Assembly (NCBI GenBank): GCA_030390025.1
Contig: JASTWF010000093.1
Span: forward strand, 930,001-994,000
Origin: Squalus acanthias
Taxonomy: Eukaryota
Length of the DNA: 64,000 nt
Direction of reading: 5' to 3'
In this document: positions 7,170 through 54,119 of the stretch, in pieces
Position numbering within the stretch: position 1 is the stretch's first letter
Layout: every line of letters begins with the position of its first letter
The notes under the pieces: model-generated
What the model saw: the letters and a program-made list of their open reading frames with translations, nothing else
Database searches by the model: none
Told to the model about the DNA's origin: nothing
Program-made: the position numbers and the translations under genes

Positions 7170-7262
7170 TTCTGATGAAAGGTCATCGACCTGAAACGTT
7201 AACTCTCTTTCTCTCTCCACGGATGCTGCCTGGCCTGCTGAGTTTTTCCAGCGTTTTCTGTC
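7170..7262 (+). mobile_element. Short Penelope-type terminal-repeat insertion with an 11-bp TSD (agtagatattg)
   Basis: TSD at 7159-7169 and 7263-7273; empty site in the right arm (~43352); carries a CTGATGA...GAAA hammerhead core. Confidence 0.8.
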
Positions 7263-7700: not shown

Positions 7701-8051
7701 CTGCAAATATTAGAGACACAATGCCCTGGCCATTTCCTTTTCCGTTCCTGACAAAGCACACATACTGTCCAGCATCCTCTGGTCTCACTCTGTCCAGCTT
7801 CACTGAAACGTTCCCTTGTTTTAACTCCTCTGGGAATAAGCTTGCCCTCCCCGAATACCGAGGGCTTTGGCGACTCAGTTGCTCTTTTCCAGAATAATAA
7901 TAAACAACTTCCTCCGTCTCGACACGGTGCCAACTGATGAACAGCAGATCCAGTGACGATTCACCCCGAGCTGTAAAGCTGCAACTCAGCACCGTGTACT
8001 GGCCGTAGACAGCAGTCACTGGTGCTTCTGGGGTGTGGACTTGAAACTGAG
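7701..8051 (-). CDS. Copy A exon 2 (IgV domain, open)
   Basis: QFQVHTPEAPVTAVYGQYTVLSCSF...ISWH...RASLFPEELKQGNVSVKLDRVRPEDAGQYVC: a B7-type IgV with canonical C/W/C; 351 nt, phase 1-1. Confidence 0.9.
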
Positions 8052-8339
8052 CTGTGAATTCAAACAAATAGATTAGTAACAGCATTGTTCCAAGAGATTT
8101 AATCTTAACTCTTCAGAACATTTTATTTTAAATGGATGATTAATACGAGATTTATTCTTGAACACAGGAAAGCACTAAGAAGTAATTATCCCCACAGCTG
8201 TAATTTCTCTTCTCCTGAATGGTTGATATTTCCTGGGTTGATATTTTCTGTGATCTATTGAAATAGAAAAAGTTTTGTTCCCTCACCTCACAAAATGGAC
8301 ATCAAAAAAAGTAACTGCAGCAACATGATCAGTAAACAT

Positions 8340-9894
8340 CACAAAATAATGGGACTAAAAGACGACAGGTCCCCTGGACCAGATGGCCTGCATCCCAGGG
8401 TCTTAAAAGAAGTGGCTGCAGAGATAGTGGATGCATTGGTTGCAATCTACCAAAATTCCCTGGACTCTGGAGAGGTCCCAGCGGATTGGAAAACCACAAA
8501 TGTAACACCCCTATTTAAGAAAGGAGGGAGACAGAAAGCAGGAAACTATAGACCAGTTAGCCTAACATCTGTCGTTGGGAAAATGCTGGCGTCCTTCATT
8601 AAGGAAGCATTAGCAGGGCATTTGGAAAATCAATGCAGTCAAGCAGAGTCAGCATGGTTTTATGAAAGGGAAATCATGTTTAACAAATTTGCTGGAGTTC
8701 TTTGAGGATGTAACGAGCAGGGTGGATAAGCGTGAGCCAGTGGATGTGGTGTATTTGGATTTCCAGAAGGCATTCAATAAGGTGCCACATAAAAGGTTAC
8801 TGCATAAGATAAGAGCGCACAGAGTTGGGGGTAATATATTAGCATGGATAGAGAATTGGCTAACTAACAGAAAGCAGAGAGTCGGGATAAATGGGTCATT
8901 TTCCAGTTGGCAAACGCTAACTAGTGGGGTGCCACAGGGATCGGTGCTGGGGCCTCAACTATTTACAATCTACATTAATGACTTGGATGAAGGGACCGAG
9001 TGTACTGTAGCTAAGTTTGCAGAAGATACAAAGATGGGTGGGAAAGTAAGTTGTGCAAAGGGATATAGACAGGCTAAGTGAGTGGGCAAACATTTGGCAG
9101 ATGGAGTATAATGTGGGAAAGTGCAAGGTTATCCACTTTGGCAGGAAAAATAAAAAAGCTAGTTATTTTTTTAAATGGAGATTACAAAATGCTTCAGTTT
9201 AGAGGGACCTGGGGGTCCTTGTGCATGAAACACAAAAAGTTAGCATGCAGGTGCAGCAAGTAATCAAAAAGGCAAATGGAATGTTGGCCTTTATTGCAAG
9301 GGGGTTGGAGTATAAAAGCAGAGAAGTCCTGCTACAACTGTACAGGGTATTGATGAGACCACACCTTGAGTACTGCATACAGTTTTGGTCTCCTTATTTA
9401 AGGAAGGATATACTTGCATTGGAGGCAGTTCAGAGACGATTCACACAGTTGATTCCAGAGATGAGGGATTGACTTATGAATAAAGGTTGAGCCTATACTC
9501 ATTGGAATTTAGATGAATGAGAGGTGATCTTATTGAAACATACAAGATACTGAGGGGGCTCGACAAGGTAGATGCAGAGAGGATGTTTCCCCTCGTGGGG
9601 AAATCTAGAACTCCGGGGCACAGTTTCAGAATAAAGGGTCGCCCTTTTAGAACCGAGATGAGGAGGAATTTCTTCTCTGAGGGTCGTAAATCTGTGGAAT
9701 TCTCTGCCCCAGAGAGCCTCGGAGGCTGGGTCATTAAACACATTTAAGGTGGAGATAGACAGATTTTTTACAAGATAAGGGAGTGAAGGGTTATGGGGAG
9801 CGGGCGGGGAAGTGGCTTTGAGCCCAAGATCAGCCATGATCTTATTGAATGGCAGAGCAGGCTCGAATGGCCAAGTGGCCTATTCCTGCTCCTA
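8340..9894 (+). mobile_element. 5'-truncated, frameshifted CR1 LINE (RT and 3' end)
   Basis: SPGPDGLHPRVLKE, NYRPVSLTS, YLDFQKAF, GVPQGSVLGP, degenerate FAED. Mirrored at 40700-42290. Confidence 0.92.
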
Positions 9895-9992
9895 CAAAAA
9901 GAAAATACTGCAGATGCTGGAAATCTGAAATAAAAACAGAAAATGCTGGAGATACTCAGCAGGTCAGGCAGCATCTGTGAAGAGAGAAACAG

Positions 9993-10029
9993 AGTTAACG
10001 TTTCAGGTTGATGACCTTTCGTCAGAACT
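9993..10029 (-). ncRNA. Minimal type I hammerhead ribozyme motif
   Basis: agtt-CUGACGA-a-AGGUC auc AACCU-GAAA-cg-UU-aact; related copies at 7168-7204 and 20556-20592. Confidence 0.65.
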
Positions 10030-10807
10030 GGAAAAAAGCAGGAAATGGAACAGATTTTTAAGCAAGTGTAGGGGCTGGGAAAGGGGGGAGGGGATGAAAG
10101 AACAAAAGGGAAGGTCTGTGATAGGATAGAAGGCAGGAGAGGTTAAGAGACATTAAGAGATATTCAAGGCAAAAGGAGATGGTAATGGGACAGGTTAAGA
10201 AACAAAGGATGGCTCTAGATGAAGTGTAAATTGCACTGGCAGAATGAAAGACAGCTGCCATGTGGGGGAGAAGAAAAGACAAAAAGGTGTGGATAAAAAA
10301 TATATATAGGATAGGGGCTGAGGTTATGATCTGAAATTGTTGAACTCTATGTTGAGTCCAGAAGGCTGTAAAGTGCCTAATCGAAAGATGAGGTGCTGTT
10401 CCTCGAGCTTACGCTGAGCTTCAGTGGAACAATGCAAGAGGCCGAGGACGGTGAGGTCTGAGTGGGAGTGGAGCAGAGAATTAAACTGACAGGCGACCAA
10501 AAGCTCAGGGTCCCCCTTACGGACTGACCGGAGGTGTTCCGCAAAGCGGTCACCCAATCTGCGTTTGGTCTCCCCAATGTAGAGGAAACCACATCGTGAG
10601 CAGCAAATACAGTATACTAAATTGCAAGAAGTACAAGTAAATCGCTGTTTCACCTGGAAGGGGTGTTTCGGGCCCTGGACAGTGGGAAGGGGGGAGGTAT
10701 AAGGGCATGTGTTGCATCTCCTGCACTTGCACGGGAAGGTGCCGGGTGAAGGGGAAGGGGTGCTGGGGGGTGATAGAGGAGTGGACTAGGGTGTCTCGGA
10801 GGGAGCG

Positions 10808-12499
10808 TGTAGAATTCGCAATATATCGCGATTTTATTAATAAGGAGAAGAACACATAGTTTCGTTCAAACAGCTTTTATTTCAGCAGAATGCTGTCAGG
10901 TTTTCAAAGTGGACACAAGCAGCTTGTAAAATGGCCGCCACGCCTCGTGGCGGAACATTCCAGATTTTTCGATAGGCAGACAAGATGGCGTTCCAATAAA
11001 CATTTGTGCAAGATCGATCAAGACTCAGCACATTTAAGATAATACACGAGACATCATGGGTTTACAGTATACACATAAATACTGAAATCGGTCTCCCAGG
11101 TGCGAATAAGGGCTATTGTACCAAGTAATCAAGGACCCATCCAAAGACATTAATATGTAAAATCCCAACGACTCTACGATGAGAGAGCCGTTAGCGGGTA
11201 GTTACAGAAAACATTTGGAAGCCCCAAAACCCCTCCAGGGAGAACACCGACCGATTAAACAATGGGAGAAATATTAACAGGTACTCAGACAATTACGAGT
11301 ATCCCCGAAACCCATTAAAACGGAGATCACCCTATACAAGAAATTTGAGCGCCAAACCCTAACAAAAGAAAAGACATTAAGGTTGGGCGGGAAAAGGAAG
11401 ATTTTGCACTATAATTACAAGCTCCAAACCGTCCATCTTTCTCTTATTCGGTTGACTCTTATCCTGCTGGCGTTTATCCTCGTGGCTGCTCTTGACTCGC
11501 CGTCTTGTTCCTGTTTGCCTCGTGTCTCTTTTCAAAAGACTGTTGAACTTTACGATCCGCTCGGATCTACCTCGTGGCGTGTCGCGAAGACCTGTGTAGA
11601 ACTGGGCTCTGAAGCCTTGAAGCGGGCGCACCATCCCGATAAGTCGGTAAACGGTGTTGGAACCGAAGGCCCGAGATGAGATGAGATGAGATGAGAAGAG
11701 AAGAAGACCATACTTATCGCCACGGTCAGTAAGCTCCGACCGCGCCTGTAGGTCGAATAGACACTTTCCTTGCCCAGGAAGACTTCTTTTGAGTTCTACA
11801 GAACTGGCACAGGAAGACTATTTTTCAAATTTTATCAGTGCGAGGGCAAAGGAAGACTCTTCTTTGAGCAGTGTCGGAACTCCGAGGACAACACAGATCT
11901 TCATGACAGCAGACGTTCCAGCCTGCTAGCCGGAGCAGAAACGAGTAAACAAGTGGGGTACGGAGACCCCCTGATCGACACGTGGGTGCTGCGGTGAAAA
12001 ACATCCGATCAGAGTTTTCGGAATTCTCCGAGTTATCACGAGTGGTGAGCATGAGTCTCGAATCCTACGAATCTAGCTTAGGACAGATATTGATAGGGGA
12101 GGGTTTTAAGTATTAAGGATAATTGTAATGTGTGCCCCCATTTACGATGTGTCGTTCGTTCCTCGTTTCCCTGAAATTAGTCACATAACTGCGTGTAAGA
12201 TTGTACTGTCATTAATCTGTGCTTATGACATGTATTTCATAATCTTAAATAATATGCAATAAAGATTTTCCATTTCGTACCATTCAACCGAGTCTACCTG
12301 AGTTTTATCTCCATTACTGCTCTCGCATCTAAGTCCAGTGTCAGAACCGTAAGGGCGAGTGGGTCGAACCACTCACAGGTGTCTAGTGCTCCCAGGCTGG
12401 CTGGAGACCAGAACAGGCAACAAGGCCTAAACTCGCACTAGCATCCAGGCTGCACAGAGCCACACGAATCTCACAGGTTGAGAGACAAAAACCCTTACA
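10808..12499 (+). repeat. 5' LTR (1692 bp)
   Basis: Starts tgtaga, ends ttaca; AATAAA at ~12258; direct repeat of 18523-20219. Confidence 0.95.
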
Positions 12500-12503
12500 G
12501 AAA

Positions 12504-14309
12504 ATAGCGACCGCGGCACGAGGCTGGCAGCGAGAGGGTAATGTGTTAGACTTTGGTATGAATGTACGAAATGTCATGCAAGAGAAAATAGCAGATTATG
12601 TGTTCGGAAAAGTAAATTTGACTAAGAAATGGATAAGTGACCTGCTAGTGGATAAGTGTCCACTAGAGGCAGCCGAGAGGTGGACAGATAGCAAGGAACA
12701 TAAAAAGACAGTCGAGAAAGTGGTCTGGTTAATGTGTTATAAGAGACAAGTCCAAATTTCAAACCAGGTCATTACAGCGCAAACAGCTCGGATCAGGCAT
12801 TTAGAGGAGGAAATGGATGAGAAGGTCTCTGGAGGGGAGTTGCTCATTAGGAATTTAAGTGCGCTGCACCGAGAACGCCAGGAAATCACCAGTCACCATA
12901 AAGCAAAAATAGATTACCTCGAGTGCCAGGTCACTGAGGCAAAGTTAAGTGAGGGCAGACTAAAGGAACGATGTGCCCGCCAAGCTGCCCAAATAAAAGC
13001 CCAGGAAGAGAGCTTAACGGGGGTTAGGGCGGCATATAAGATGGCCTTTGAGGATAAGTTTCAGGGGGCCGATCACAGCGTCTGCCAAAAAGAGATAGAG
13101 CACCTTAAAAGGGCCGTGAACAAAGCGCACGGCATGGTGTGTCTTATCAGTCCGTCAGCACACCAGCCACTAGTAGAAGAGGAGTTTCAGAAATTCCCAC
13201 CAAGTAAAGCAAAGGAAGTATTAGCCACTACGCCCTCCGCGCCACCCAGCTATTCGGAAACCTGGGTAAGGGAGGAAGTAGTAGAAGAAACGAAAGAGCC
13301 CACTGAGGGAGAAGTGGAAAAGGGACCGTTGTGTCCGGTTACGGGTACCAAAAGGGGCCCGAACGGAAACGGTGGGGAACAAGGGGATCTCCTCAACCAG
13401 CTTGTGTTGCCTCACAGCTCACACCAGCTGAGGGTTATGATAAGTCACGTACGGAAGCTGACCGAGGCAGACGACCCTTCCGTACATTTCAGGGAAGTTG
13501 AGCAAACCGCAGCCATTAACGGCTGCGACGATGGGGAAACAGCAAAGATGCTGTTATTTTCGTTAGGCAGTTCAATCCTTCAGTGTCTCTCGGACGAGAG
13601 CAAGAGGGGAACCAAGAACTATGAGGCATTAAAAAATGAGGTCCTAGAAGTATTGGGGACGGACGATGAAGGTCCGTTTGTTAGAGTGGGACAGACAGTG
13701 CAGATGGAGGGAGAACCCCCGAAGGTTTTCGCCGACAGGCTGTGGCCAGTATATCAGCGCAGCTGCCCAGGTGCGCCAGAGCGCGACGCTGTGGACGGCA
13801 TCGGTTTAACTCATTGGCTTAGGTGTATAGTAGCCAACAGTTTGCCAGCCGTCAGAGAGCAGGCAAAAGCGTGGTTTGATCCCACTGACCCCAACATTAC
13901 GGAAGAGTCGGTCTTAAATCGACTCACGGTAGGATACCGTAATATCAGGGGTATGGGAACACGTCCCCTTGAGGGAAAAGTACATGAGGTACGACCCGCA
14001 GCCCCGGCTCAAAAGGAGTGGCATCAGGAGGGTAACCGCGCCCCGCAGGCCAGTAATGCTTGTTACGGGTGTGGGAGGACAGGGCACTGGCGCAAGAACT
14101 GCAGGAACCCTTGGAAGGATTCCAGGGATAAAAATCCCGCAGCCCGAGCCCAGATGCCTGTCTCTGTTAGGGAAGCTAGTGCACCCACCCCTCCCGACGA
14201 CCTCGAAACAGTGTTGGGAGCCATGCGCAACTTCATGAGTGCGCATGGAAAAGTGGCGGTTGCTACCGGCCCCGTAGGTGCCACAGGCCCGTCTAATAGT
14301 ACCCAATGA
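12504..14309 (+). CDS. gag: Gag-like protein (N-terminal coiled coil, capsid-like region, one CCHC knuckle); probable original start at 12504 is now ATA, next ATG at 12558
   Basis: Open frame; CYGCGRTGHWRKNC at 14061-14102; PSAPPSY late motif; position directly after the 5' LTR. Confidence 0.88.
   Translation: MATAARGWQREGNVLDFGMNVRNVMQEKIADYVFGKVNLTKKWISDLLVDKCPLEAAERWTDSKEHKKTVEKVVWLMCYKRQVQISNQVITAQTARIRHLEEEMDEKVSGGELLIRNLSALHRERQEITSHHKAKIDYLECQVTEAKLSEGRLKERCARQAAQIKAQEESLTGVRAAYKMAFEDKFQGADHSVCQKEIEHLKRAVNKAHGMVCLISPSAHQPLVEEEFQKFPPSKAKEVLATTPSAPPSYSETWVREEVVEETKEPTEGEVEKGPLCPVTGTKRGPNGNGGEQGDLLNQLVLPHSSHQLRVMISHVRKLTEADDPSVHFREVEQTAAINGCDDGETAKMLLFSLGSSILQCLSDESKRGTKNYEALKNEVLEVLGTDDEGPFVRVGQTVQMEGEPPKVFADRLWPVYQRSCPGAPERDAVDGIGLTHWLRCIVANSLPAVREQAKAWFDPTDPNITEESVLNRLTVGYRNIRGMGTRPLEGKVHEVRPAAPAQKEWHQEGNRAPQASNACYGCGRTGHWRKNCRNPWKDSRDKNPAARAQMPVSVREASAPTPPDDLETVLGAMRNFMSAHGKVAVATGPVGATGPSNSTQ
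12505..12521 (+). promoter_or_regulatory. Primer binding site, tRNA-Arg(UCG)-like, with a TGG>TAG mismatch
   Basis: tagcgaccgcggcacga versus TGGCGACCGCGGCAGGA (complement of a vertebrate tRNA-Arg-TCG 3' end, from recall): 15/17 match, 5 nt after the LTR. Confidence 0.7.
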
Positions 14310-15416
14310 CTAGAGCCCACGCAGCCTGCCTACCTGTGTCCTTTTAAAAGACACGCACAGGAGGGGGTCTCCTGTGAGGAGACCAGGTTAAAAGAGCAGG
14401 CCTTGCGGGAGGAGAACGCCCGTTTAATAGGGAAAATAGATGGGCTAGAAGGGCAGCTTAGAGAGCAGGCCCTGCGGGAGGAGAACGCCCGCTTAATGGG
14501 AAAGTTAGACGTGCTCAGGCTAGAAGAGCAGCTTAGAGAGATAAAAGCAGCCTACAAGGTAGCCAGAAGCAGGGATTTAAACCAGTGCAAACTGTACAAG
14601 CCAGGTGCACAAGGGAAAACCACAGGGGCAAAACATGCGAGTGGGGACTCGCAGCCCCAGGTAGGACCACAAGGCACACAGGCAGGCAGAGCAGCTTGCA
14701 TCAGGGAAGGAGGCATCCTGGAAAATTGTGAAACATTTTTGTGGGGTTGGGAGTCAGATGAGGGAGAGTTCCAGGAACTCGACGAAGATGAGGATAGTGA
14801 TGAGGACGAATGGGAATCGGAGGACGCAAGGGTCGCCCCCGATTCAGGTATAGGGAGGACAGGGGCTGCAGATAGAGATCCACACAGGGTGGACACCGAG
14901 GCTGCAGGTCCCGAACACAGGAGGGAGGAGCTAGGGGAGGTGGAGCCAGCCACTGTGGGACCACAGGGCGTGACGGTGGAAACCTCAGAGCCCGAGCCGC
15001 CCGCCTTGAACGTCCTGCCCTCGGGGGAGGTAGGGATTGCGAGTGAAGGGCCGCCTGCTGGGCCGAGCAGGGCGGTGCCACAAGCTGCAAGTCCCGAGGT
15101 CAGGGAGGCGGAGTCAGGGGAGGCGGAGCCAGCGACTGTGGTGGGACCACAGGTCGTCCCGGTGGAAGTCTCGGAACCCGGTCCGTCGGTCCTGGGATTC
15201 CTGCCCCCGACAACTCCTCGTAGGTCAAATCGGGCACCCCAGCCCAGGAAAATGTGGTCATGTCCCCAGACTGCCCCAAGGCGCAGGCTCAAGGTTAAGG
15301 CAGCCCAGGAAGGGCCCAGTCCCATCGCAGCAGCAACAGGCTGCGGCAGATCAAAGGAAGGGGTCAGTGCCCTCCCACCGTCGGAAAGAGCTCACAGCAG
15401 CCTTCTCAGAATTTAA
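14310..15416 (+). CDS. ORF X: coiled-coil, acidic and Pro-rich protein of unknown function, in-frame with gag behind a leaky stop
   Basis: 368 open codons directly after TGA-CTAG, in the gag frame; no catalytic Pol motifs. Confidence 0.7.
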   Translation, partial: LEPTQPAYLCPFKRHAQEGVSCEETRLKEQALREENARLIGKIDGLEGQLREQALREENARLMGKLDVLRLEEQLREIKAAYKVARSRDLNQCKLYKPGAQGKTTGAKHASGDSQPQVGPQGTQAGRAACIREGGILENCETFLWGWESDEGEFQELDEDEDSDEDEWESEDARVAPDSGIGRTGAADRDPHRVDTEAAGPEHRREELGEVEPATVGPQGVTVETSEPEPPALNVLPSGEVGIASEGPPAGPSRAVPQAASPEVREAESGEAEPATVVGPQVVPVEVSEPGPSVLGFLPPTTPRRSNRAPQPRKMWSCPQTAPRRRLKVKAAQEGPSPIAAATGCGRSKEGVSALPPSERAHSSLLRI

Positions 15417-15721
15417 AGGGGCCGCCCTGGGAACGGGCGGCGCTGTACAGTAATAAGTTTAGGATAAGTTTTTAAGTTCATAGTTTAAGGTTAAGTTTTA
15501 GATAAGTTTATAGTTTTAAATCAGGTTAAGTTTGTAGTTTAATTTTAACAGAAAATGGTAAAATGATGGGAGTTTTAGAGATAGGTTTAGTTAAAGTTTA
15601 TCCAGCGAACATTGAAGTTTACGTGAGGCGAGGTCAGGGGACCCGCTCACCCTTCACAAAAGCCAGAGACTCTTGCGAGGCTGGCTACCTCATTCTATCT
15701 GATCACAGGAACCAAGGAAGG

Positions 15722-18073
15722 ATGGAACGAATTCTAGTATTGCTCGCGGCAATCGGATGTGGATTGGCCTATCGAGGCCGCACCAAAGATGTCGTGGTGT
15801 TTGGATGCTCCGGAGACACGGCCCCCATCGCGGTGGATGGGACCGGAAGACGGGAGGCTGAGGAGACCACCACCTATTTCCACAAGGGAAGGTGGCCAGG
15901 ATGGCTGGGAACGAACTCAACGGAGTATTCCAGCACATCGGGGTTTGCCTACCAAGAGACTTCTTTAATGTGCCCCAAAGTAAGGATCATCGCACCCAGG
16001 ATCAGCGTCACCGTCGGCAAACGGATTTGTTTGACTTGTAGTAGGAATGTCCCATTGAGCCGATGGTGGTGGCTGCGAAAGCTGAGCAGAAACATGAGGA
16101 ACTCTTCGGTCGAGTGGGAACGACTGGGTAATAATACCCATCGGACAATTACGGGGACAAACGGACAAGTGAGGGTCTGTTGGGACAAATGGTGGGAACC
16201 GGATGAGGGAATTTATGTATGCATGTGGGGTTCAAAGTACGCTTGCCCCAAAGGCATCTCCATATTTTTCATTAATCAATGGCAGGATAATGGACAGGGG
16301 ATGAGGTGGGATGCGAGCACCAGAGGGTGCGGAGCCCCATACTCTTCGATCCCGGTAAATGCCACTGAACTCATTACGCGCCCACGCAAAGCCCCGCCCA
16401 CGATTCCGGTGGTTCTAGCTAAAGAGGAAGGGTGCCCTAAAACCAGTAAGGGACCCGGGAATGGTTTGGTACTGGTCCCCACAGACCAGATACTATTTCA
16501 GGGGGTACATTACGCGGTGGCCTCGGTGATTTTAAATCTCACCGAGGTACGGTTACCAGAGTGGTGCCCCAAAAAGACGGAACAGTTATATCAGGTCCTG
16601 TTGACCAAGATGTTCAGACAATTTTACGAATTCGATTTCGCGGAAATTGATAAAACAAGTTTGTACACTGCACCACATGAAGTTTTTGATCAAGTGGGGA
16701 GGCAAAGAAGTGGTGTAGTGAACGACGCGTTCACTGCTTTTAACACGGGTACATCTGTGGTCAACGCTCTAGACAGTGTGGAGCTGCAGACCCAGATTAA
16801 TGGTTTAAAGACGCAATTAAAAGACATTCTAACAGATGAAAATAAAGTGGTTGGGTCGGGTTTACACGAGGACCAAACCATGACTCTCCATTTAAAGGAA
16901 ATTATAGCAGAGCTAGAGAAACATGCAAAGACGGTAAATGCCCTGATTAGGGAAGATCGGAATGCATCCGATCAAGCTGCGCAGAAGGAGGTGTGCGTGC
17001 TTTACGGGGCGTGGTTACTGGGCGAGGGCCGCAGTAATTTGGAGGATTTAAAACAAGGTTTGGTCCCGTCCTGGATAAGTAACAAACACCTGCGGGCGCT
17101 CCACCCTTTTCAGAACGCATTAAGCCCGTGCCAGCTCAGGCTAGCTTCAGAAGCATACCCAGTCCCCGTGGACTGCGGACGATCAAACCATACCATTATG
17201 GGTATAGTACTACGTATGCCGGTTTTGGGCGACACAGCAAAGCCCGCCCCGGTGTATCGGGTAGAGAACATTGGTGTCATTCAGGGGGGAGCCCACATTC
17301 GCTATGCAGCGGTTCCACCCTACGTCATCCGCTGGGAGCAAACGATGACAGGTACAGATCTCTCTGGTTGTCGTGGCAGGGGAGCACACATAATACTGTG
17401 TCCCCAGCACTTGAATGCCTTTTTAACACCACAGTGCGGGTTCAGAACGGCTGGCGCCAAGTCCATGAATTGCACCATGGAGGCAATGGCACAAGATCAT
17501 GTGCCTCCGCAGGTAGCATACATCGGGGGTGGAACATATTGTGTTACCACTGCAGCGCAACACTACCAGCATGGAAACCGTAGCCGGTGTCCGGTGAGTG
17601 ACAGCAGTTTCTGTTTCAAACCCAGGGCGGAAGTTCAAGTAGCACAACAGCGAATTGTCCCAATCCCTGAACCATCCACTGTTCATCTAACAGTAAAAGA
17701 GAATTTCACCGACTTGCAGCGATTCGTCGCGCATTTCGGATACCTCATTCCCCCTCTCCCTGAACACCTCACCAAGCTTTTAAAAGCCGTCGCGGTGTCA
17801 CAAAAACATTTTTACACACTAGAGCAGAAAACTGTCGAAATAGGGACAGACATTCTGGATATAGTAATTCCACCGTGGTGGAATCTGTTCACCAATATTG
17901 AAGTACCGTCCTGGATCAGAATAGCCTCCCACATTTTAGTTGTATGCCAAGTTTTTATTGTAGTGTACCTGTTGGTCGTACATTGTAAGAGAGGCAAACG
18001 CCTCACCAAGCACGAAAACACGGGAGAGTGGCGAGAACGTTACGTGCGCGTGCACGATGAAAGCACCGTGTAA
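15722..18073 (+). CDS. env: Env-like type I membrane glycoprotein (783 aa), F-type class I fusion protein-like, with an N-terminal Ig-like domain
   Basis: Signal peptide MERILVLLAAIGCGLA; RQRS/G then a fusion-peptide-like stretch and heptad repeat; Cys-rich region; several N-X-S/T sites; C-terminal TM ILVVCQVFIVVYLLVV. Confidence 0.85.
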   Translation: MERILVLLAAIGCGLAYRGRTKDVVVFGCSGDTAPIAVDGTGRREAEETTTYFHKGRWPGWLGTNSTEYSSTSGFAYQETSLMCPKVRIIAPRISVTVGKRICLTCSRNVPLSRWWWLRKLSRNMRNSSVEWERLGNNTHRTITGTNGQVRVCWDKWWEPDEGIYVCMWGSKYACPKGISIFFINQWQDNGQGMRWDASTRGCGAPYSSIPVNATELITRPRKAPPTIPVVLAKEEGCPKTSKGPGNGLVLVPTDQILFQGVHYAVASVILNLTEVRLPEWCPKKTEQLYQVLLTKMFRQFYEFDFAEIDKTSLYTAPHEVFDQVGRQRSGVVNDAFTAFNTGTSVVNALDSVELQTQINGLKTQLKDILTDENKVVGSGLHEDQTMTLHLKEIIAELEKHAKTVNALIREDRNASDQAAQKEVCVLYGAWLLGEGRSNLEDLKQGLVPSWISNKHLRALHPFQNALSPCQLRLASEAYPVPVDCGRSNHTIMGIVLRMPVLGDTAKPAPVYRVENIGVIQGGAHIRYAAVPPYVIRWEQTMTGTDLSGCRGRGAHIILCPQHLNAFLTPQCGFRTAGAKSMNCTMEAMAQDHVPPQVAYIGGGTYCVTTAAQHYQHGNRSRCPVSDSSFCFKPRAEVQVAQQRIVPIPEPSTVHLTVKENFTDLQRFVAHFGYLIPPLPEHLTKLLKAVAVSQKHFYTLEQKTVEIGTDILDIVIPPWWNLFTNIEVPSWIRIASHILVVCQVFIVVYLLVVHCKRGKRLTKHENTGEWRERYVRVHDESTV

Positions 18074-18510
18074 TCGGAAAATGGCGTCACTCCCGCTTGC
18101 CACGTGCGCCTCGGAAGTGTTGTACTCGATCGTGATTTTTTCGGAAACTGTAAATACGTTTGGAACTCGACATGTTTTAAGAGTTGGTGTTGATTATTTT
18201 GGTGATGGTGTTGTAGTTAAAAATGATTGTTTGGTTTTGTTTTGTTTTTCCTTTTCCCTAAATAAAAAGATGAATATACAGGTGATACGAGAGGCATCGG
18301 CCTGGTTACGCCTGGAAGGAAAACAAGTGGTGTAAGTTTGAAGGCAAATAATGCCTACGGTGCTATAAAATGTAATTTTCTTGGGAAATAAGGACGACGC
18401 AAGGACCCTAGATAGTTTAAGTTATGGGATTAATTTTCTGGATCTGGAGAAATCGAGATAATATTGCTCACCACTATATTTTTGATACGATAAGCGGAGT
18501 TATTCGCATC

Positions 18511-18522
18511 AACAGGAGGGAC
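18511..18522 (+). promoter_or_regulatory. Polypurine tract
   Basis: aacaggagggac immediately before the 3' LTR. Confidence 0.7.
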
Positions 18523-20219
18523 TGTAGAATTCGCAATATATCGCGATTTTATTAATAAGGAGAAGAACACATAGTTTCGTTCAAACAGCTTTTATTTCAG
18601 CAGAATGCTGTCAGGTTTTCAAAGTGGACACAAGCAGCTTGTAAAATGGCCGCCACGCCTCGTGGCGGAACATTCCAGATTTTTCGACAGGCAGACAAGA
18701 TGGCGTTCCAATAAACATTTGTGCAAGATCGATCAAGACTCAGCACATTTAAGATAATACACGAGACATCATGGGTTTACAGTATACACATAAATACTGA
18801 AATCGGTCTCCCAGGTGCGAATAAGGGCTATTGTACCAAGTAATCAAGGACCCATCCAAAGACATTAATATGTAAAATCCCAACGACTCTACGATGAGAG
18901 AGCCGTTAGCGGGTAGTTACAGAAAACATTTGGAAGCCCCAAAACCCCTCCAGGGAGAACACCGACCGATTAAACAATGGGAGAAATATTAACAGGTACT
19001 CAGACAATTACGAGTATCCCCGAAACCCATTAAAACGGAGATCACCCTATACAAGAAATTTGAGCGCCAAACCCTAACAAAAGAAAAGACATTAAGGTTG
19101 GGCGGGAAAAGGAAGATTTTGCACTATAATTACAAGCTCCAAACCGTCCATCTTTCTCTTATTCGGTTGACTCTTAACCTGCTGGCGTTTATCCTCGTGG
19201 CTGCTCCTGACTCGCCGTCTTGTTCCTGTTTGCCTCGTGTCTCTTTTCAAAAGACTGTTGAACTTTACGATCCGCTCGGATCTACCTCGTGGCGTGTCGC
19301 GAAGACCTGTGTAGAACTGGGCTCTGAAGCCTTGAAGCGGGCGCACCATCCCGATAAGTCGGTAAACGGTGTTGGAACCGAAGGCCCGAGATGAGATGAG
19401 ATGAGATGAGATGAGAAGAGAAGAAGACCATACTTATCGCCACGGTCAGTAAGCTCCGACCGCGCCTGTAGGTCGAATAGACACTTTCCTTGCCCAGGAA
19501 GACTTCTTTTGAGTTCTACAGAACTGGCACAGGAAGACTATTTTTCGAATTTTATCAGTGCGAGGGCAAAGGAAGACTCTTCTTTGAGCAGTGTCGGAAC
19601 TCCGAGGACAACACAGATCTTCATGACAGCAGACGTTCCAGCCTGCTAGCCGGAGCAGAAACGAGTAAACAAGTGGGGTACGGAGACCCCCTGATCGACA
19701 CGTGGGTGCTGCGGTGAAAAACATCCGATCAGAGTTTTCGGAATTCTCCGAGTTATCACGAGTGGTGAGCATGAGTCTCGAATCCTACGAATCTAGCTTA
19801 GGACAGATATTGATAGGGGAGGGTTTTAAGTATTAAGGATAATTGTAATGTGTGCCCCCATTTACGATGTGTCGTTCGTTCCTCGTTTCCCTGAAATTAG
19901 TCACATAACTGCGTGTAAGATTGTACTGTCATTAATCTGTGCTTATGACATGTATTTCGTAATCTTAAATAATATGCAATAAAGATTTTCCATTTCGTAC
20001 CATTCAACCGAGTCTACCTGAGTTTTATCTCCATTACTGCTCTCGCATCTAAGTCCAGTGTCAGAACCGTAAGGGCGAGTGGGTCGAACCACTCACAGGT
20101 GTCAAGTGCTCCCAGACTGGCTGGAGACCAGAACAGACAACAAGGCCTAAACTCGCACTAGCATCCAGGCTGCACAGAGCCACACGAATCTCACAGGTTG
20201 AGAGACAAAAACCCTTACA
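18523..20219 (+). repeat. 3' LTR (1697 bp)
   Basis: Differs from the 5' LTR by about 8 substitutions and one extra ATGAG unit (counted by eye). Confidence 0.95.
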
Positions 20220-21032
20220 AGCGGTCCCTACGGAATGCTGAAAGGGGAGGTGAGGGGAAGATGCGTTTGGTGGTGGGATCACGCTGGAGGTGGCGGAAAT
20301 GGCAGAGGATGATCCGTTGAATGTGGAGGCTGGTGGGGTGAAAGGTGAGGACAAGGGGAACTCTATCGTGGTTCCGGGAGGGAGGGGCAGGGGTGAGGGC
20401 AAAAGTGCGGGAGATAGAACGGACACAGTCGAGGGCTGTGTCAACTACGGTAGAGGGGAATCCTCGGTTGAGGAAAAAGGAAGACATGTCGGAAGCACTG
20501 GTATTCCCAACCCCTACACTTGCTTAAAAATCTGTTCCATATCCTGCTTTTTTCCAGTTCTGACGAAAGGTCATCGACCTGATACGTTAACTCTGTTTCT
20601 CTCTTCACAGATGCTGCCTGACCTGCTGAGTATCTCCAGCATTTTCTATTCCTGCTCCTATTTCTTATGTTCTTATGTAAATAGACAGGGGCTGTTTCTT
20701 TGAAATATTCTTTTCAGCTCCATGAACAATATTTACTTGGGAATTATCCACCTTGCCCATTAAAATTACCCAACATCACAAGTGAAACCCTTCGGTCCCA
20801 GACCTGAAACGTTAACTCTATTTCTCTCTCCACGGATGCTGCCTGACCTGCTGAGTATTTCCAGCATTTTCTGTTGTTATTTCAGATTTGCAGCATCTGC
20901 AGTATTTTGCTATTACAAGTGAAACTACTGTTATTGCTTTGGGCCATTGCTCAGTGGTGAAAAGACCACCTGAAACTGTGTAGATCGTTCATTCTAATGT
21001 GTGCAAGGAAACAGTTACATTTAAAGACTTAC

Positions 21033-21333: not shown

Positions 21334-22204
21334 CAGACACTGCCCCGCGAGCCAGCGAATCAGAGACTGGTTAGAGCTTTTCCTCGGCAGTCCCGCCTCC
21401 CCAGGGCTGCCAGACCATGCCACAGACACCGCAGCAGCAGCAACAACCTAGTGGTTGCTGTTTTTAAGAGTTTATTTTTTACTGTGATGGAATGAGAAAC
21501 AGCCTTACAGTAATTTGTTAATCTATTTGTAAAATGTTATTATTGCATTTATATTGTTAATTATAAGGCTTTATTGTTATTGTGATCAATGAATGTAATG
21601 GTTTATTATGTAATTGATGAGTTGTATAAGTACTATTCTTGAATAAAAAGATTAACAAGAAAAAAAAACAACCTAGTGGTTAAAAGAAAAAAAACCTTTT
21701 CTTTTGAGAATTTCCCTCATCTGGAAGTGGAAATATTTCATTTTAACACAGCACATTTAAGTTGCACAACCCATAAAGACATTTGACTGTGCAACTAAAA
21801 TCATGTAAATTATCTTGGCAATTGGCTGCACTGAAATCAGTCAGGCATTACTAGTTAGTGTACAGTTATTGAAGTGCCATTGACTAAAGGCAAACTAATT
21901 GAAGATTCTTTTGCTTGTGGTTAAAATGTCATAGTGTACTGATCCTGTCAGCAAAAGTAACTGGTGTTTTGCTGCAGTGTAACTTAAATAGCCATAAAAA
22001 GTGTCTTTATGGAGGATATTCGTGGGAAACTACAAGGATATGAAGATGTTTACAGCTTTTTGTATTACCTGAAATAGTTATGGTTCCTCACTGCAACAGT
22101 TTGATAACCAGGATATATGTAATAAAATAACTGAATACACATCCACAAGACTTGCACCAAAATGTCAGACTTTCTGTGAAAGTGCTCTTTATACAAAACA
22201 TCAG
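21334..22204 (+). repeat. 871-bp direct duplication, copy 1 (flanks Tx1)
   Basis: Near-identical to 28953-29823 with a constant offset of 7619. Confidence 0.95.
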
Positions 22205-22811
22205 AAGAAGAAAAGAAGAGGGCCGGAAGATCCGAGGGGTGTGTGTGTGTGTGGCTTTTGAAAGAACTAGGCCGCACACACCACTAATTAAACACCCCTT
22301 CCCATTGCCTGACCTGGGCCAGCTGGAGCTGCCTAGGTGAAGTCCCCCAACTCAATTAACCTGATTGGGGCATCGTTAAGACCTGGTGCAGGACTGAGCC
22401 TGGGCATCTCCAGCTTTCCCAGGTGAAGACATCTTCTCCCCCCACCAGAAGACCACCGGAAAGGACTCTAATTTACATCGGAGAGTGCACCCCCTGCCAA
22501 CACCCACCCAACCACCATCCTGAGTGGCGACCCTGCCCTTGCGGCTTCCCTCCTTCCCACCCCCTCTCTCTCTCGCTTTGTCTCTTGTCTCTCTCTGCCT
22601 CTCTCTCTAAGAGGCACCTCATTAAACTTTTAATTAAGTACCCATTGAGCAGAGGGGAGAAGGCCCCTCTCCTAATTAATTCATATAAAGGGAGAGGTGT
22701 GCTTCAATTTAAGAGCTCCCTCTGCTCAGGGAAAAAAAAACAATACCAAGGCCATTAACACCTTCAGGCCTGTGACTTGGGGTGAGTGTAGCCCTTAAGG
22801 ACCAACCCATC

Positions 22812-24962
22812 ATGGCGACCACATCTTCGCCGGTGGCGGGGGCAGCGAGGACGTACGCAAGCGTGGCAGCCGCGGCCACGGCCGCAGCCACGGGTCCTCC
22901 TGTTACCCCGTCACCTTTTACCCTCCTCACGAGGAAGAATGGGGTCAAGAGCTACACTCACCCCAACATGACGATAGAGGCGTGCGTTAAAGCCATGGCT
23001 GGGGTTGTCGGCCCTTCAGCCATCGTCGCCGCCTCTAAAATGTACGGCAAGGCTGTGTTCTTTCTGGGGTCGGAGCGGGCGGTGTCCCTGGCCATCGAGA
23101 AGGGGCTCACCGTGGGCGGGACCTTCCTGCCGGTGGACCCCCTTGAGGCCACCGCGCAAAGGATCGTCATCTCTAACGTCCCGCCCTTTGTTCCGGGTGA
23201 GCTCCTCCTCCCCCAACTACGTCAACTGGGGGAGGTGAGGTCGGGGATCACACCCATCCCGCTCGGCTTCCGGAAAGCCAGCCTCCGGCACGTCTTCTCC
23301 TTCCGGCGCCAGCTTTTCGTCCGGCTGGCGCGGGAGGAGGACGCGGACGGCGCGTTCACGGTGCTCCACGGGGGGACCGCCCACCGCGTCTTCTGGACCT
23401 CGGACGGCGTGCGGTGCTACGCCTGTAAGGAGGTGGGGCACGTCCGGAAAAACTGCCCCGCCTCCAAGGCCGCCACGACACCTGGCGCGGCCAGGGCTGG
23501 CGCCGCCGCCCCCCCTCCCCCTGATACTGTCCGTGCGTCGAGGACAACGGATGCGCGGTCGACGTCGGGGGCCAACACCATCACGGCCTCCGGCGGGGGG
23601 GAGGGAGAGCGTCCGGGGGGAAGGAAGGCGCTGAGAAAAACTAAACACCTCAGGGCGGGTCCCCTCGTGGAGGAAACTACCGATTTGCCCGAACTCACGC
23701 CCGCGCTCATCGCGGAGTTGACGGGGACGCGTGAGACTGGGGGGGTCCTCGTGCCCGGGCCCGTGACCGAAACTGCCGAGGCAGAGCAATCAAGACCTGC
23801 GGCCGGGCTCGGGCCCGAGGGGCCCAAGGAACCCAGTCATCGGGAGGGGGCAGAGAGGGAGGCCCCGGCAGACATGGAGGCCTCTCCCTCCCTGGGCCCC
23901 AATATTTTAAAAAGGAGGCGCAACACCCAGGAGGAGGACTGCGAGGAGGAAGGTCCCTCCGCAGAAGGGGAGTCGTCACCCGCCGCGGGTGCTGCGCCCC
24001 ACCCCACCACCGTCATCGTCGCGCGTGATCGGCAGGGGTCGCCTGTCCCTCGGGAGGGTGAGGCAGCCGAGTCTGTCCGACCTGTGCCTCCCGGGGATGG
24101 GGAAGAGACCCTGCCCGTGGGTGGGGCCGCGGAACAACCCGCGGAAGAAAATAATATGGTGCCAGAACCGTTGCTCCTCGCCGGGTCGGGCGTCCTGGGG
24201 ACTGGGGCGGGCGAGGCCAAAGAGGCTGAAGCCGAGCCCGCCATTTACAACCCAGATATATCCCAGGGACTGCTCGACCTGGTGGAGGAGTACAACAATC
24301 CCCAGCCCGCTGGGTCGGAGGCTGGTGGCGGGGAGACAGAAAGCCCCCTGACTCCGTCTCTGATGTTGGCGCCGGACGTACTGGAGGACCTTGGAATTGT
24401 TTTTTCCCCGGTTTCTCCGGTCGCTCCGGCGCCTGAGGCGGAGGGGGGCCCCGAACCGCCGCCGCCTCCCGGCCCGGCGCCCCTGAAGGAGCCCAGGGTG
24501 GCCTCCTCTGCCACCGATCCTGGGGGTGGGATCGTGACGGAGGCGGGGCCGGCCGGTGCGGCCGAGCCGTTCGCTGCACCCCGTGCGACGGACGGGTTGG
24601 CCGCTGGTGACGACCTCCCGGAGGAGGACGGGGACTCGGTGTTGGGCACCGAGGATGATTTGGAGTCCATCGGCAGTGAGACGATGGACGCCCTCGTGCC
24701 CTTCACCGACTCTCCCCTCATCCCCGTAGGGGAACTCCGGGATTTTATGGCCATGCACCAGGGTCGTCACAAGAAGATCCGGCTGGCCCTCGACAAGTGG
24801 TCGGAGCTGGCGCTGCTCGTCCGGTCTGTCCGCGCCGCCGTTAAAATCATGGGCGCGGACAAGGACGTAAACCGGGCCGAGCTGCGTCGGCTCAAGGCGT
24901 TCCACGCTGGGCTGCTGAGGGAGTGGCGGTCGTCAGTGACCGCGCTCCCTCCCCCCCGTTAG
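22812..24962 (+). CDS. Tx1 ORF1 (RNA-binding/CCHC protein with a long acidic, Pro-rich tail)
   Basis: VVGPSAIVAASKMYGKAVFFL...ISNVPPF...RHVFSFRRQ...CYACKEVGHVRKNC, typical of Tx1 ORF1. Confidence 0.88.
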   Translation: MATTSSPVAGAARTYASVAAAATAAATGPPVTPSPFTLLTRKNGVKSYTHPNMTIEACVKAMAGVVGPSAIVAASKMYGKAVFFLGSERAVSLAIEKGLTVGGTFLPVDPLEATAQRIVISNVPPFVPGELLLPQLRQLGEVRSGITPIPLGFRKASLRHVFSFRRQLFVRLAREEDADGAFTVLHGGTAHRVFWTSDGVRCYACKEVGHVRKNCPASKAATTPGAARAGAAAPPPPDTVRASRTTDARSTSGANTITASGGGEGERPGGRKALRKTKHLRAGPLVEETTDLPELTPALIAELTGTRETGGVLVPGPVTETAEAEQSRPAAGLGPEGPKEPSHREGAEREAPADMEASPSLGPNILKRRRNTQEEDCEEEGPSAEGESSPAAGAAPHPTTVIVARDRQGSPVPREGEAAESVRPVPPGDGEETLPVGGAAEQPAEENNMVPEPLLLAGSGVLGTGAGEAKEAEAEPAIYNPDISQGLLDLVEEYNNPQPAGSEAGGGETESPLTPSLMLAPDVLEDLGIVFSPVSPVAPAPEAEGGPEPPPPPGPAPLKEPRVASSATDPGGGIVTEAGPAGAAEPFAAPRATDGLAAGDDLPEEDGDSVLGTEDDLESIGSETMDALVPFTDSPLIPVGELRDFMAMHQGRHKKIRLALDKWSELALLVRSVRAAVKIMGADKDVNRAELRRLKAFHAGLLREWRSSVTALPPPR

Positions 24963-24987
24963 GTAGAGGTTGCACTATGCTTCTGAG

Positions 24988-27900
24988 ATGAAGATAACCA
25001 TAGCCAGCCTCAACATCAACGGCAGCAGGGAGGCGCGCCGTAGATTCAATAACTTCTCGGTCCTTCGGGACGGGAAATATGCGGTGTGCTTCCTGCAAGA
25101 AACCCACACCGTTCCGGGAGACGAGGCCACGTGGCTCCTGGAGTGGCAAGGAGGGGTCAGCATGAGTCACCTCTCCAACAATTCCTGCGGGGTGGCCGTC
25201 TTGCTGGCCCCGCATTTTCAGCCGGAGATCTTGAGGGTCAAGGAGCACGTGCCGGGCCGCTTGCTCCAGGTCACTGTTTGCCTGGGAGGCGTGCCGCTCC
25301 ATTTGGTGAACGTGTACGTCCCCCAGACCGGTGCGCAGCAAGTGCGCTTCTTCGGAGAAGTGTCCGCTCTTCTGGGCTCCATCGACGTGGGCGAGTGCGT
25401 CATCCTCGGGGGGATTTCAATTGTACCCTCGAGGCGCGGGACCGGTCGGGTCCCCCGCGAAGCCCGGCGGCGATGGAGAAGTTGCGGGACCTGGTCGGGT
25501 CCTTCGACTTGGTGGACGTCTGGCGAAATCTCCATCCCGACTCCAGCGCCTTCACTTGGGTGGGGTCTGGAGGAGGAAGGTCCAGAATCGACCGCCTTTA
25601 CATTTCCCGGGCGTACGTCTCCTGCGTTCCGGCGGCTTCCATGCGGTCGGTGCCGTGCACAGACCACCACCTGGTGTGGGCGGAGCTCGCTCCGCTGCGC
25701 GCGCTGGGGGGGCTCCGCGTACTGGCATTTTAACAACCTGCTGCTGGAGGACGCGCGGTTCTGGGATTCGTTTCGCCGGTTCTGGGCCGACTGGAGAAGG
25801 AAGCGGGGAGGCTTCCCCTCCTTGAGGCTATGGTGGGACGTGGGCAAGGCTCACGTCCGCGTCTTCTGTCAGGAGTACGCGAAGGGGTCGACCAAGAGGC
25901 GGGAGGCCCGGGTCGGGCGATTGGAGAAAGAAGTGCTCGACCTGGAGTCCCGTCTCGGTCAAGTCGTCGAAGACCCGGCTCTGCGGAAGGTGTACAAAGA
26001 GAAGAAGGGCGCGCTGAAGGACCTGCAGTTGGTCGGGTCCCGAGGCGCGTACGTGAGGTCGCGGATCCAGTTCCTGCGGGACCTGGACCGCGGCTCCCCC
26101 TTCTTCTACTCGCTGGAAAAAAGACGGGGGGTCCGTAAGCAGCTCTTGGGGCTGCTGGCCGACGACGGATCTCTGGTCTCGGATCCGGAGGGCATCAGCG
26201 CGGAGGCCCGGGCCTATTACGGGGCTCTGTTCTCTTCGGATCCGTCCAGCGAGGATGCGCGCAGAGTTTTGTGGGAGGACCTGCCGAAGGTCGGCCCGGA
26301 GGGCGCCAAGAATTTAGAAGCTCCGCTAAGCCTGGCGGAGCTGACCGGCGCCCTGCGCCAGCTCTCGAGGGGCAAGTCCCCGGGGCTGGACGGGCTGACC
26401 GTGGAGTTCCACAGGGCGTTCTGGGACGTCTTGGGGGACGACTACGCGCGGGTCCTGGGGGAAAGTCTGGTGACCGGGGAGATGCCCCTCTCTTGGCGCA
26501 GGGCGGTCATTGTCCTGCTGCCCAAGAAGGGCGATATCTGCCGCCTTAAGAACTGGCGCCCGGTCTCCCTCCTCAGCACGGACTACAACATTTTCGCCAG
26601 GGCTATGTCTGCTCGCCTTGGCACCGTGCTGGCCCACATGATCCACCCCGACCAGTCCTACACGGTCCCGGGCCGGTCCATCCACGACAACATCCACCTG
26701 GTCCGGGACCTGGTCCACCATTCCCAGAGGGCTGGTCTGTCGGTCGCCTTCCTTTCCCTGGATCAGGAGAAGGCGTTCGACAGGGTGGATCACGAGTATC
26801 TTTTCGGGACTCTGCGCGCATTCGGGTTCGGGAAGCATTTCGTCGCCCGGATCCGACTTCTGTACGCCGCCGCGGAGTGTCTGATTAAAGTTAACGGGTC
26901 TTTGACGGCGCCCCTTCGCTTCGGGAGGGGGGTGCGTCAGGGATGCCCCATGTCCGGTCAGTTATACGCCGTTTGCGTGGAGCCTTTCCTGCGCCTCTTG
27001 CGGAAGAGGTTGACGGGACTGGCTCTGCAAGGGCCGGGCGTGGAGGTGGTCCTCTCGGCTTACGCCGATGACGTGCTCCTCGCGGTCACAGATCCCGTCG
27101 ACTTGCAGAGGATGCGGGATTGCCAGCAGATTTACTCGGACGCATCCTCCGCCAAGATCAACTGGGAGAAATGTTCTGGACTCCTGGTGGGCCCATGGCA
27201 GGTGGACTCCCTGCCGGAGGAGTTCAGGCCCTTCGCCTGGAGCACAACGCACCTCCTCTACCTGGGAGTCTACCTTAGCCCGGCCGAGGTCGCCTGGCCG
27301 GCGAACTGGCAAGAGCTGGAGGCCAAAGTCACCGCTCGCCTAGGGCGCTGGACGGGACTGCTCCGAGTGTTGTCCTACAGGGGTCGAGCGCTGGTCATAA
27401 ACCAGCTGGTGGCCGCCATGTTGTGGTACCGGTTGGTCACTTTGATCCCTCCCCCTGCGTTTGTCGCCAAGATGCAGAAGAAGCTCGTCGGCTTCTTCTG
27501 GGACAAAAGGAATCACTGGGTCTCTGCCGCGGTTCTGAGTCTCCCGCTTAGGGAGGGCGGTCAGGCGCTGGTGTGCCTTCGCACCCAGGCGGCGACATTC
27601 CGTCTTCAGACGCTGCAGAGATACCTGTACGTGGAGAATCCTCCTAGGTGGCGTGCACTGGCGACGTATTTCTTCCGCCAGCTGTACGGCCTCAATTACG
27701 ACACGCAGCTCCTGTTTGTGAGAGTGGGCGGCACGCGTGCCAGCCTGCGGGAGCTGCCTGTCTTCTACCAGGAACTGCTATGGGTTTGGAACAGAGTCGC
27801 CTCCAGGCGCAGTTCTCCCCCGTCAGGAGCGGCGGCCGTCCTTCCGGAGCCGCTGCTCAGGAATCCGCACCTCCTCGACCGCGGGTTCGGTAGGCTGGCG

Positions 27901-28887: not shown

Positions 28888-28952
28888 TTTGTTAAGTTTC
28901 CTTTAAAGTTTTATTTTAGTTACAGTTACGTTATTGGTTTGATCAAAATAGT

Positions 28953-54108: not shown

Positions 54109-54119
54109 ATGCTATAATG

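Follow-up and report, generated by a model that had tools for sequence, protein, structure and literature searches.

A probable immunoglobulin-type head on the F-type envelope protein of a young retrovirus in Squalus acanthias

Introduction

A stretch of 64,000 nucleotides from the genome of Squalus acanthias (assembly GCA_030390025.1, contig JASTWF010000093.1, positions 930,001 to 994,000 of the forward strand; hereafter “the window”, with positions counted from its first letter) carries an endogenous retrovirus (ERV) whose envelope protein, Env, raises a question: what is the role of an immunoglobulin (Ig)-like region at the N-terminus of a protein that otherwise resembles the F protein that paramyxo- and pneumoviruses have? 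A preliminary description, made from the sequence alone, had read this protein as a captured Ig V-set domain in front of an F-type fusion module, with the Ig domain possibly serving in receptor binding or as an immune decoy. The explanation that we favour, with fair but not high confidence, is that of a young ERV of the same grade as the fish retrovirus SnRV, with a class Ib Env in which an Ig-fold binding head is attached through a flexible linker to the N-terminal end of the F2-like subunit, at a slot whose content is exchangeable.

F-like retroviral Envs (in lokiretroviruses and foamy viruses), Ig-type binding domains on Env and the capture of host Ig domains are already published, each separately. 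Our literature search, which left most subscription journals uncovered, has found neither an Ig head on an F scaffold, nor a variable N-terminal slot, nor an F-type, possibly Ig-headed Env in SnRV. Publications are cited here by accession.

The predicted F-type fusion core of Env

Env reads as a type I membrane glycoprotein; it contains 10 sequons for N-glycosylation, and its layout is listed in Table 1. The preliminary description had placed the gene at 15722..17700: the start stands, but the reading frame runs on to 18073 and includes a second heptad repeat, the transmembrane segment and a tail. Our full-length AlphaFold2 model, built on a 53-row alignment (mean predicted local distance difference test score, pLDDT, 67.8; predicted template modelling score, pTM, 0.46), is of high confidence over residues 241-310 and most of 431-650, and of low confidence around the cleavage site and the fusion peptide. 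The check by AlphaFold and Foldseek that had been proposed for this protein has returned a predicted class I fusion fold for the C-terminal part, with all 40 rows listed against the PDB being paramyxo- or pneumovirus F proteins (best E 1.3e-11). With VIA-align, residues 245-662 match F proteins at up to Z 12.3, followed by foamy Env (Z 7.8-8.0), and the matches in BFVD are headed by glycoproteins of the lispivirus type, the Env of walleye epsilonretrovirus, baculovirus F and paramyxovirus F. Structure prediction and three fold searches thus give strong support to an F-type fusion module, and the model makes it almost certain that the core of Env is an F-type fusion protein of class Ib.

At the level of sequence, Pfam matched the whole Env to neither an Ig nor an F family, and a profile of 36 homologues gave weak matches only, mainly to coiled coils, in the PDB; the scan of the own genome with Pfam PF00523 gave no match and is uninformative, because its controls gave none either. 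In the BFVD search with the Env model, the walleye epsilonretrovirus matches are the Envs of WEHV1 (E 3.5e-12) and WDSV (E 2.2e-7); together with a match whose label is that of a fish filovirus glycoprotein, they suggest F-type cores in other viruses of fish.

Class Ib proteins, i.e. paramyxo- and pneumovirus F, foamy Env and coronavirus spike, share with the modelled Env a core of domains I, II and III and the order F2, cleavage site, fusion peptide, heptad repeat A (HRA), heptad repeat B (HRB) and transmembrane segment. The small-residue stretch (residues 331-350), the heptad helix and the Cys-rich block (C550, C560, C572, C584, C607, C623 and C631) that had been noted are all present in Env, and the position of the stretch, which resembles a fusion peptide, matches that in relatives with a furin motif. 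The basic site of the preliminary description calls for a correction: the furin motif R-x-[RK]-R is fitted by 25 of the 30 fetched near copies but not by the window copy, which is probably poorly cleaved. All 20 ectodomain cysteines are kept in all 30 copies; C282 and C425 are likely to be the pair that links the two subunits, while C103 and C153 would be located opposite each other on strands B and E of the head.

The absence of CX6CC has been confirmed; a single CXXC (residues 103-106) is located in the Ig B strand. The claim that the layout is more F-like than that of the surface and transmembrane subunits of retroviruses is valid against gamma-type Env, but not in general, since this F core is also found in foamy Env (PMC11468914). 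Errantivirus Env and baculovirus F likewise have an F-type ectodomain, a furin site and a fusion peptide; errantiviruses differ in their Ty3/gypsy backbone and invertebrate hosts, and the consulted sections describe no N-terminal Ig module in them (PMC13524379).

The N-terminal head of Env

The Ig motifs that had been reported at ~15990-16225 are located at residues 95-167 (16004-16222), with C106 on strand B, W117-119 on strand C and the motif D-x-G-x-Y-x-C, ending at C167, on strand F. The combined pattern G-x-x-h-x-L-x-C...W...D-x-G-x-Y-x-C, which was composed after the sequence had been seen, occurs in none of 20,000 shuffles of Env; D-x-G-x-Y-x-C alone occurs in 29 of 20,000, and three times in the six frames of the window, namely in Env and in two host V-set exons. 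In the full-length model, residues 91-170 (pLDDT 70-84) form six strands in Ig order, and in two models from different alignments the strand order is compatible with B-C-C'-D-E-F. In the wide structural search, 35 of rows 12-50 align to residues 31-175 (Z 6.5-7.4; root-mean-square deviation 1.8-2.7 Å); nearly all of them are Ig-superfamily chains (antibody, T-cell receptor, titin, basigin or similar), V-set and I-set mixed. Of 12 family members, 11 show a weak match to Ig_3 (best E 3.2e-4), the PDB sequence search reached JAM-A at E 0.43, and the Atlas search has returned mostly Ig clusters, at scores of 0.82-0.84. On this evidence, residues ~85-184 probably adopt an Ig fold, albeit with modest scores. 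The more specific assignment to the V-set is putative: the spacing of 61 between C106 and C167 does not favour V-set over I-set, and the Pfam search of the Env head gave no V-set match, only the weak one to Ig_3.

Several results weigh against the fold assignment, and some of them would be expected if the region were a beta-rich viral domain that mimics Ig motifs, with the fold call being a prediction artefact. Pfam scores are sub-threshold (Ig_3 at E 0.043 for the isolated window domain), and an Ig-domain profile found no Ig match in the PDB. The Z-scores stay below 8, the tool's mark for more than a common arrangement, and the Atlas scores stay under 0.9. Folded alone from close relatives, the N-terminal region is poorly modelled (pLDDT 39.8); its best matches are again Ig-type sandwiches, at low scores (Z 4.7-5.4), and its BFVD search, with nothing at E 0.001, is uninformative. 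Since the stand-alone model is poor, the full-length Ig result may lean on distant alignment rows. A probable G strand (~178-184) is modelled without confidence. We nevertheless regard such mimicry as very unlikely, as the motifs, the two models and language-model features all indicate Ig and no other fold, and the order of the strands fits that of an Ig domain.

The preliminary description had called the domain captured, a word that our search does not bear out, as no host donor for the Env head has been identified and no host Ig protein is present among the 51 phmmer matches. A host V-set exon located 8 kb upstream has been ruled out as the donor (Z 3.3; 9 of 22 identities).

The N-terminal slot among related envelope proteins

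Apart from one chance match, a repeat protein of 5014 residues, the 51 representatives that matched Env include distant Envs from sharks, frogs, eel and coelacanth, which align only from ~residue 228 onward. Their N-terminal classes do not align with the window head (Z under 2), while the F cores align well. The N-termini of P0012/L044 and of P0018/P0047 match antibody heavy-chain variable (VH) domains (E 0.004 and 0.003, respectively), that of P0033 is CEACAM/SLAM-like (E 0.2; V-set E 0.045), that of P0011/P0023 is a Cys-rich module without an Ig match, and P0035, P0046 and P0048 have no N-terminal module. Among the published lokiretrovirus Envs, 22 of 23 show the N-terminus, and by eye the F2 motif directly follows the signal peptide in these, with no module between them. 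The N-terminal classes follow separate branches of a quick F-core tree.

The comparison extends to SnRV through L070, a record of 10,688 nucleotides from a motif scan that matches SnRV in length (PMC12193657) and in reverse transcriptase (RT; supplement row of PMC7947760). In hhalign, the family Env profile matches L070 Env with a probability of 95.4 (E 1.8e-8, 358 columns), by which sequence comparison the SnRV Env core is homologous to that of the family. The first 107 residues of L070 Env, tested separately, weakly match perlecan and contactin Ig domains (E 0.06-0.08); SnRV Env thus also seems to begin with an Ig domain, which is a lead and not proof. The consulted sections of PMC6001957, PMC4422223 and PMC12193657 hold no description of SnRV Env as F-type or Ig-bearing.

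A possible reading, to which we give less than even weight, is that in the SnRV-grade F-type Envs of sharks, amphibians and fish the N-terminal slot has been loaded repeatedly and independently with host-derived Ig domains, or with another module, as receptor binders, and that SnRV itself, the only infectious member that has been cultured, is Ig-headed. The relatives without a module (P0035, P0046, P0048 and the 22 lokiretrovirus Envs) speak against the binding-head explanation that we favour, since they indicate that the core can work without one.

Alternatively, the Ig-like heads could go back to a single ancient viral module that the SnRV-grade ancestor already had and that has since diverged beyond recognition and been lost in some lines, with a structural task as a stabiliser of the pre-fusion trimer and no repeated capture. 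Consistent with this are the Ig-like traces that Envs of sharks, frogs and SnRV have in the same place, the weak cross-class similarities of P0012 with P0047 and of P0018 with P0033 (Z about 4), the match of the family profile to the N-terminus of L070 (E 0.004) and the lack of a donor. We consider this origin rather unlikely, because most head classes cannot be aligned in spite of their well-aligned F cores, because P0033 resembles a V domain of the CEACAM/SLAM type without the disulfide, unlike the window head, and because the Cys-rich module of P0011 and P0023 has no Ig match. An ancient module is, however, a statement about origin; it is compatible with a binding role and can overlap with the binding-head explanation that we favour.

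A second, distant Env family is present in the same genome (L043/L044, G000:C4:121882621-121884972), with an open frame of 784 codons and a different Ig-like head; this Env sits behind a broken pol with dual RNase H, and has many degraded relatives. Four shark gene models (P0002, P0003, P0004 and P0038, named Niban1-like, ZFP2-like, CDHR5-like and fbxo15) include pieces of the Env family, and are probably prediction chimeras or cases of exonisation.

The proposed working of Env

We know of no retrovirus that has a second attachment protein. A binding role of the head is favoured because Env belongs to a retrovirus without a separate attachment protein and because its N-terminal Ig domain is located on a Pro-rich linker, as in gamma-type Envs, which bind their receptors in this manner (bioRxiv 10.1101/2024.03.17.585361); of the two roles that had been suggested, receptor binding is, by analogy, the better inference, and the immune-decoy role the weaker. 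With F and foamy Env taken as guides (PMC11468914), Env would trimerise and be cut by furin before residue 331, while the Ig head would remain on the F2-like subunit and bind a cell-surface molecule; a single Env would thus perform both attachment and fusion, which are assigned to separate proteins in paramyxoviruses. Binding or endosomal uptake would trigger refolding, upon which the fusion peptide would insert and HRA and HRB would close up to form a six-helix bundle. Within the family, the content of the N-terminal slot would be exchangeable, and the head may be of host origin.

The ratio of non-synonymous to synonymous substitution rates (dN/dS) of the Ig part is 0.08-0.40 in five of seven comparisons, the other two being saturated, which indicates purifying selection; the N-terminal extension is conserved at 0.22-0.38. 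Among copies that were selected as best matches, segregating Env changes number 129 synonymous versus 34 non-synonymous in those without pol (n=12), and 135 versus 35 in those with pol (n=15). Purifying selection on Env in pol-less copies fits infectious spread with pol supplied in trans; in SnRV, a frameshift in env stops spread (PMC12193657).

As a decoy or immune modulator, the Ig module would mimic a host Ig-superfamily ligand or shield the core, with attachment left to the core or to glycans. The existence of Envs without the module is compatible with this, as is the persistence of purifying selection on Env in pol-less copies, and in two close comparisons the Ig part evolves faster than the F1 ectodomain (dN/dS 0.24-0.40 versus 0.05-0.08). 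Faster change is, however, equally expected of a binding domain, the head resembles no particular host immune receptor, and retroviruses are not known to have a second attachment protein. The position and the linker, moreover, match those of the binding domains of coronavirus spike and gamma-type Env (PMC11468914; bioRxiv 10.1101/2024.03.17.585361), and we judge the decoy role to be unlikely.

The binding-head explanation has precedents on both kinds of scaffold. According to Fernandez et al. 2024, binding modules can be placed at the N-terminal end of the F scaffold, and these authors have proposed F as a minimal scaffold that takes on such modules: F itself has no binding domain, foamy Env has one inside its surface subunit, and spike has non-Ig modules at its N-terminus (PMC11468914). 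Compared with these class Ib proteins, the window Env adds a probable Ig-type module at the N-terminus, which is distinct from domain II of F, itself of Ig-superfamily fold (PMC11468914). On gamma/alpha-type Envs, the Ig-type domain RBD-C that MLV, FeLV and Env-Pb1 carry and a captured, SIRP-like IgV domain are known (bioRxiv 10.1101/2024.03.17.585361). The window Env resembles these in its probable N-terminal Ig domain with a Pro-rich linker and in the exchange of binding domains between Envs, and they provide a precedent for host capture; it differs in that theirs is a class Ia scaffold with CX6CC, whereas the window Env is F-type and lacks CX6CC, and in that the SIRP-like IgV has a recognisable donor, while none has been found for the window head. 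In crocodilian ERV4, a captured nectin3 takes the place of env rather than being joined to it (PMC4299795).

The Env family offers a natural series of F scaffolds that have no head, one of several Ig-type heads, or a Cys-rich head. Beyond foamy viruses and lokiretroviruses, it adds the SnRV grade to the range of the F-type Env, a result that bears on the origin of retroviral env; for SnRV, an unclassified cultured fish retrovirus, it yields a prediction of the entry architecture together with a candidate for the binding domain. If the slot is such a repeatedly loaded plug-in site, it would rank beside spike and foamy Env as a third way in which the F scaffold acquires a binding domain, and it would point to the F-type Env as the ancestral retroviral envelope.

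Kinship of the retrovirus

The preliminary description had pointed to lokiretroviruses and errantiviruses as kin; neither is closest, as the RT groups with canonical retroviruses of SnRV grade. In the tree of RT plus tether (21 rows), the family is placed with L070, with frog and coelacanth “NYNRIN-like” Pols and with gamma/epsilon-like elements (100/99), while L071, a loki-like element from another motif scan, is located outside. In the approximately unbiased (AU) test, the grouping of the family with L071 is rejected (p 0.0008), and that with L070 has p 0.17. The RT is 52% identical to that of L070 over 132 residues and 43-44% over ~264, with the frog and coelacanth Pols nearer in RT (51-54%), and the N-terminal part of Gag is similar to SnRV-type Gag (E 4e-6). 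From these sequences, the family is best placed among the basal canonical retroviruses, at the grade of SnRV (clade Huo in PMC6001957), and its signal is mosaic: gag, protease and RT are nearer to L070, while tether, integrase and Env core are nearer to L071.

The latter part of this mosaic counts against the SnRV placement, with integrase at 42% identity to the loki-like element versus 35% to SnRV, tether at 38% versus 26%, and the F-core profile at E 1e-22 (L071) versus 6e-9. The tree holds one loki-like and one SnRV-type sequence, and sisterhood with SnRV has no tree support and is simply not rejected by the AU test.

SnRV and the family share a coiled-coil Gag with one CCHC, an in-frame gag stop before pol, the homologous F-type core and, weakly, the Ig-like N-terminus; SnRV differs in an Env frame of 1134 residues, with ~400 more residues before the core and a tail of 136 residues, and in its accessory open reading frames, and the two Ig heads do not align (Z 2.2). 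SnRV-like ERVs are known in the elephant shark, as CmiERV lineage I (PMC4422223).

Lokiretroviruses share with the family an F-like Env, a dual RNase H (tether plus RNase H), the homologous core and a similar integrase and tether (PMC7947760); neither the dual RNase H nor the F-like Env is exclusive to them. They differ in a more hydrophobic fusion peptide and a long insert before RT, and the Gag of L071 lacks a CCHC. Identity as a lokiretrovirus has been dropped, given the RT tree, the rejection by the AU test and the published loki Pol, which differs by eye in its long insert and in other RT motifs; the comparison with published loki sequences was made by eye, and the trees have L071 as their loki-like member. 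In the lokiretrovirus survey, none of three chondrichthyan genomes is positive (PMC7947760). The loki RT motif pattern had no match in the own genome or in viral contigs, which does not show absence, and the related-locus searches in viral contigs had no match. Crocodilian ERV4 has also been rejected as an identity, with a 5-bp target-site duplication and no Gag zinc knuckle (PMC4299795) versus 4 bp and one CCHC here.

The provirus and its copies in the genome

The provirus spans 10808-20219 (9.4 kb), and its features are listed in Table 1.

Table 1. Coordinates of the provirus and of the predicted parts of Env in the window.
Feature	Position	Strand	Remarks
5' long terminal repeat (TG...CA)	10808..12499	+	4-nt target-site duplication just before, 10804-10807
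gag	12558..14309	+	open frame from 12387; first ATG 12558
pol remnant	14310..15416	+	from comparison with pol-bearing copies L041, L042, L048, L049
env open reading frame	15722..18073	+	ATG 15722, stop 18071-18073, frame 15530-18073; 783 aa
Signal peptide, residues ~1-17	15722..15772	+	putative, from its sequence
Beta-rich N-terminal extension, residues 18-84, conserved	15773..15973	+	both models of low confidence here
Probable Ig-fold domain, residues ~85-184	15974..16273	+	motifs, predicted fold, weak Ig_3 matches
Pro/Thr-rich linker, residues ~185-237	16274..16432	+	pLDDT under 50
F2-like subunit, residues 238-330	16433..16711	+	ends at cleavage position 16700-16711
Fusion-peptide-like small-residue stretch (331-350) and HRA (351-411)	16712..16954	+	
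Beta-rich, Cys-rich region, domains I and II of F, residues 477-652	17150..17677	+	
HRB (681-713) and transmembrane helix (~733-755)	17762..17986	+	short tail follows
3' long terminal repeat	18523..20219	+	purine-rich tract before; target-site duplication 20220-20223 after

The two long terminal repeats (LTRs) are 99% alike, with 8 mismatches and 5 gap positions in 1697 columns; at the substitution rates of 2.2e-9 and 2.2e-10 per site per year that are quoted in PMC4422223, this divergence dates the insertion to roughly 1 to 11 million years ago. The gag product comprises a coiled coil, a capsid-like region and one CCHC knuckle, and its terminal TGA is in frame with pol. In the window copy, pol is reduced to its first ~10 codons, an unrelated insert of 236 nucleotides (14342-14577) and the C-terminal tail. 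Nothing is left of protease, RT, RNase H or integrase, and with pol missing the copy is non-autonomous. The pol-bearing copies have a frame of ~1500 codons after the in-frame gag stop, with protease, RT, tether, RNase H and integrase. Among the 30 fetched near copies, 14 carry the same deletion and insert, and in 16 env has integrase sequence upstream of it. The insert keeps the frame open and codes for a repeated, coiled-coil-like peptide; no origin for it was found among the fetched loci.

The genome search for env has given at least 57 near-identical matches (57 scored of 12,911 candidates; 98-100% identity), three of them with an internal stop; the search kept the best matches only, which biases it toward intact copies. 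They show that an env-bearing retrovirus has recently expanded on a large scale in a cartilaginous fish. Among named proteins, those of a skate and a sawshark come closest. Two loci, L001 and L003, duplicate the insertion of the window itself, and the duplicate insertion on C4 has its 3' LTR broken by a related LTR (L073:4080-4705), 86% alike.

Scans of the window with Rfam and for tRNA gave no match. The contigs of four of the 14 listed runs, taken by guess to be RNA, contain no clear env splice joint; they cover all 30 bins of 11300-18500, which decides neither for nor against expression.

Other elements of the window

At 6276-8112 on the minus strand there is a host gene that has exons of the V-set and C-type Ig kinds and is butyrophilin/B7-like according to Pfam; an inverted paralogue is located at ~42516-45623 on the plus strand, and the pair lies within a long inverted duplication. 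The paralogue lacks the equivalent of 9893-20645, and thus preserves the provirus-free state.

The provirus splits a fragment with a GIY-YIG-type motif (10324-10785 and 20215-20523, minus strand), which looks like a Penelope element. A GC-rich non-LTR element at 21334-29823, presumably Tx1/L1-like, has a zinc-knuckle ORF1, an endonuclease-RT ORF2 and a zf-RVT domain; its flanking direct repeats of 871 nucleotides, 99.4% alike, are unusually long. Another endonuclease-RT non-LTR element is located at 57047-60112, a very GC-rich repeat block at 43961-45114, and a tandem array with a 29-nt unit at 51576-54109.

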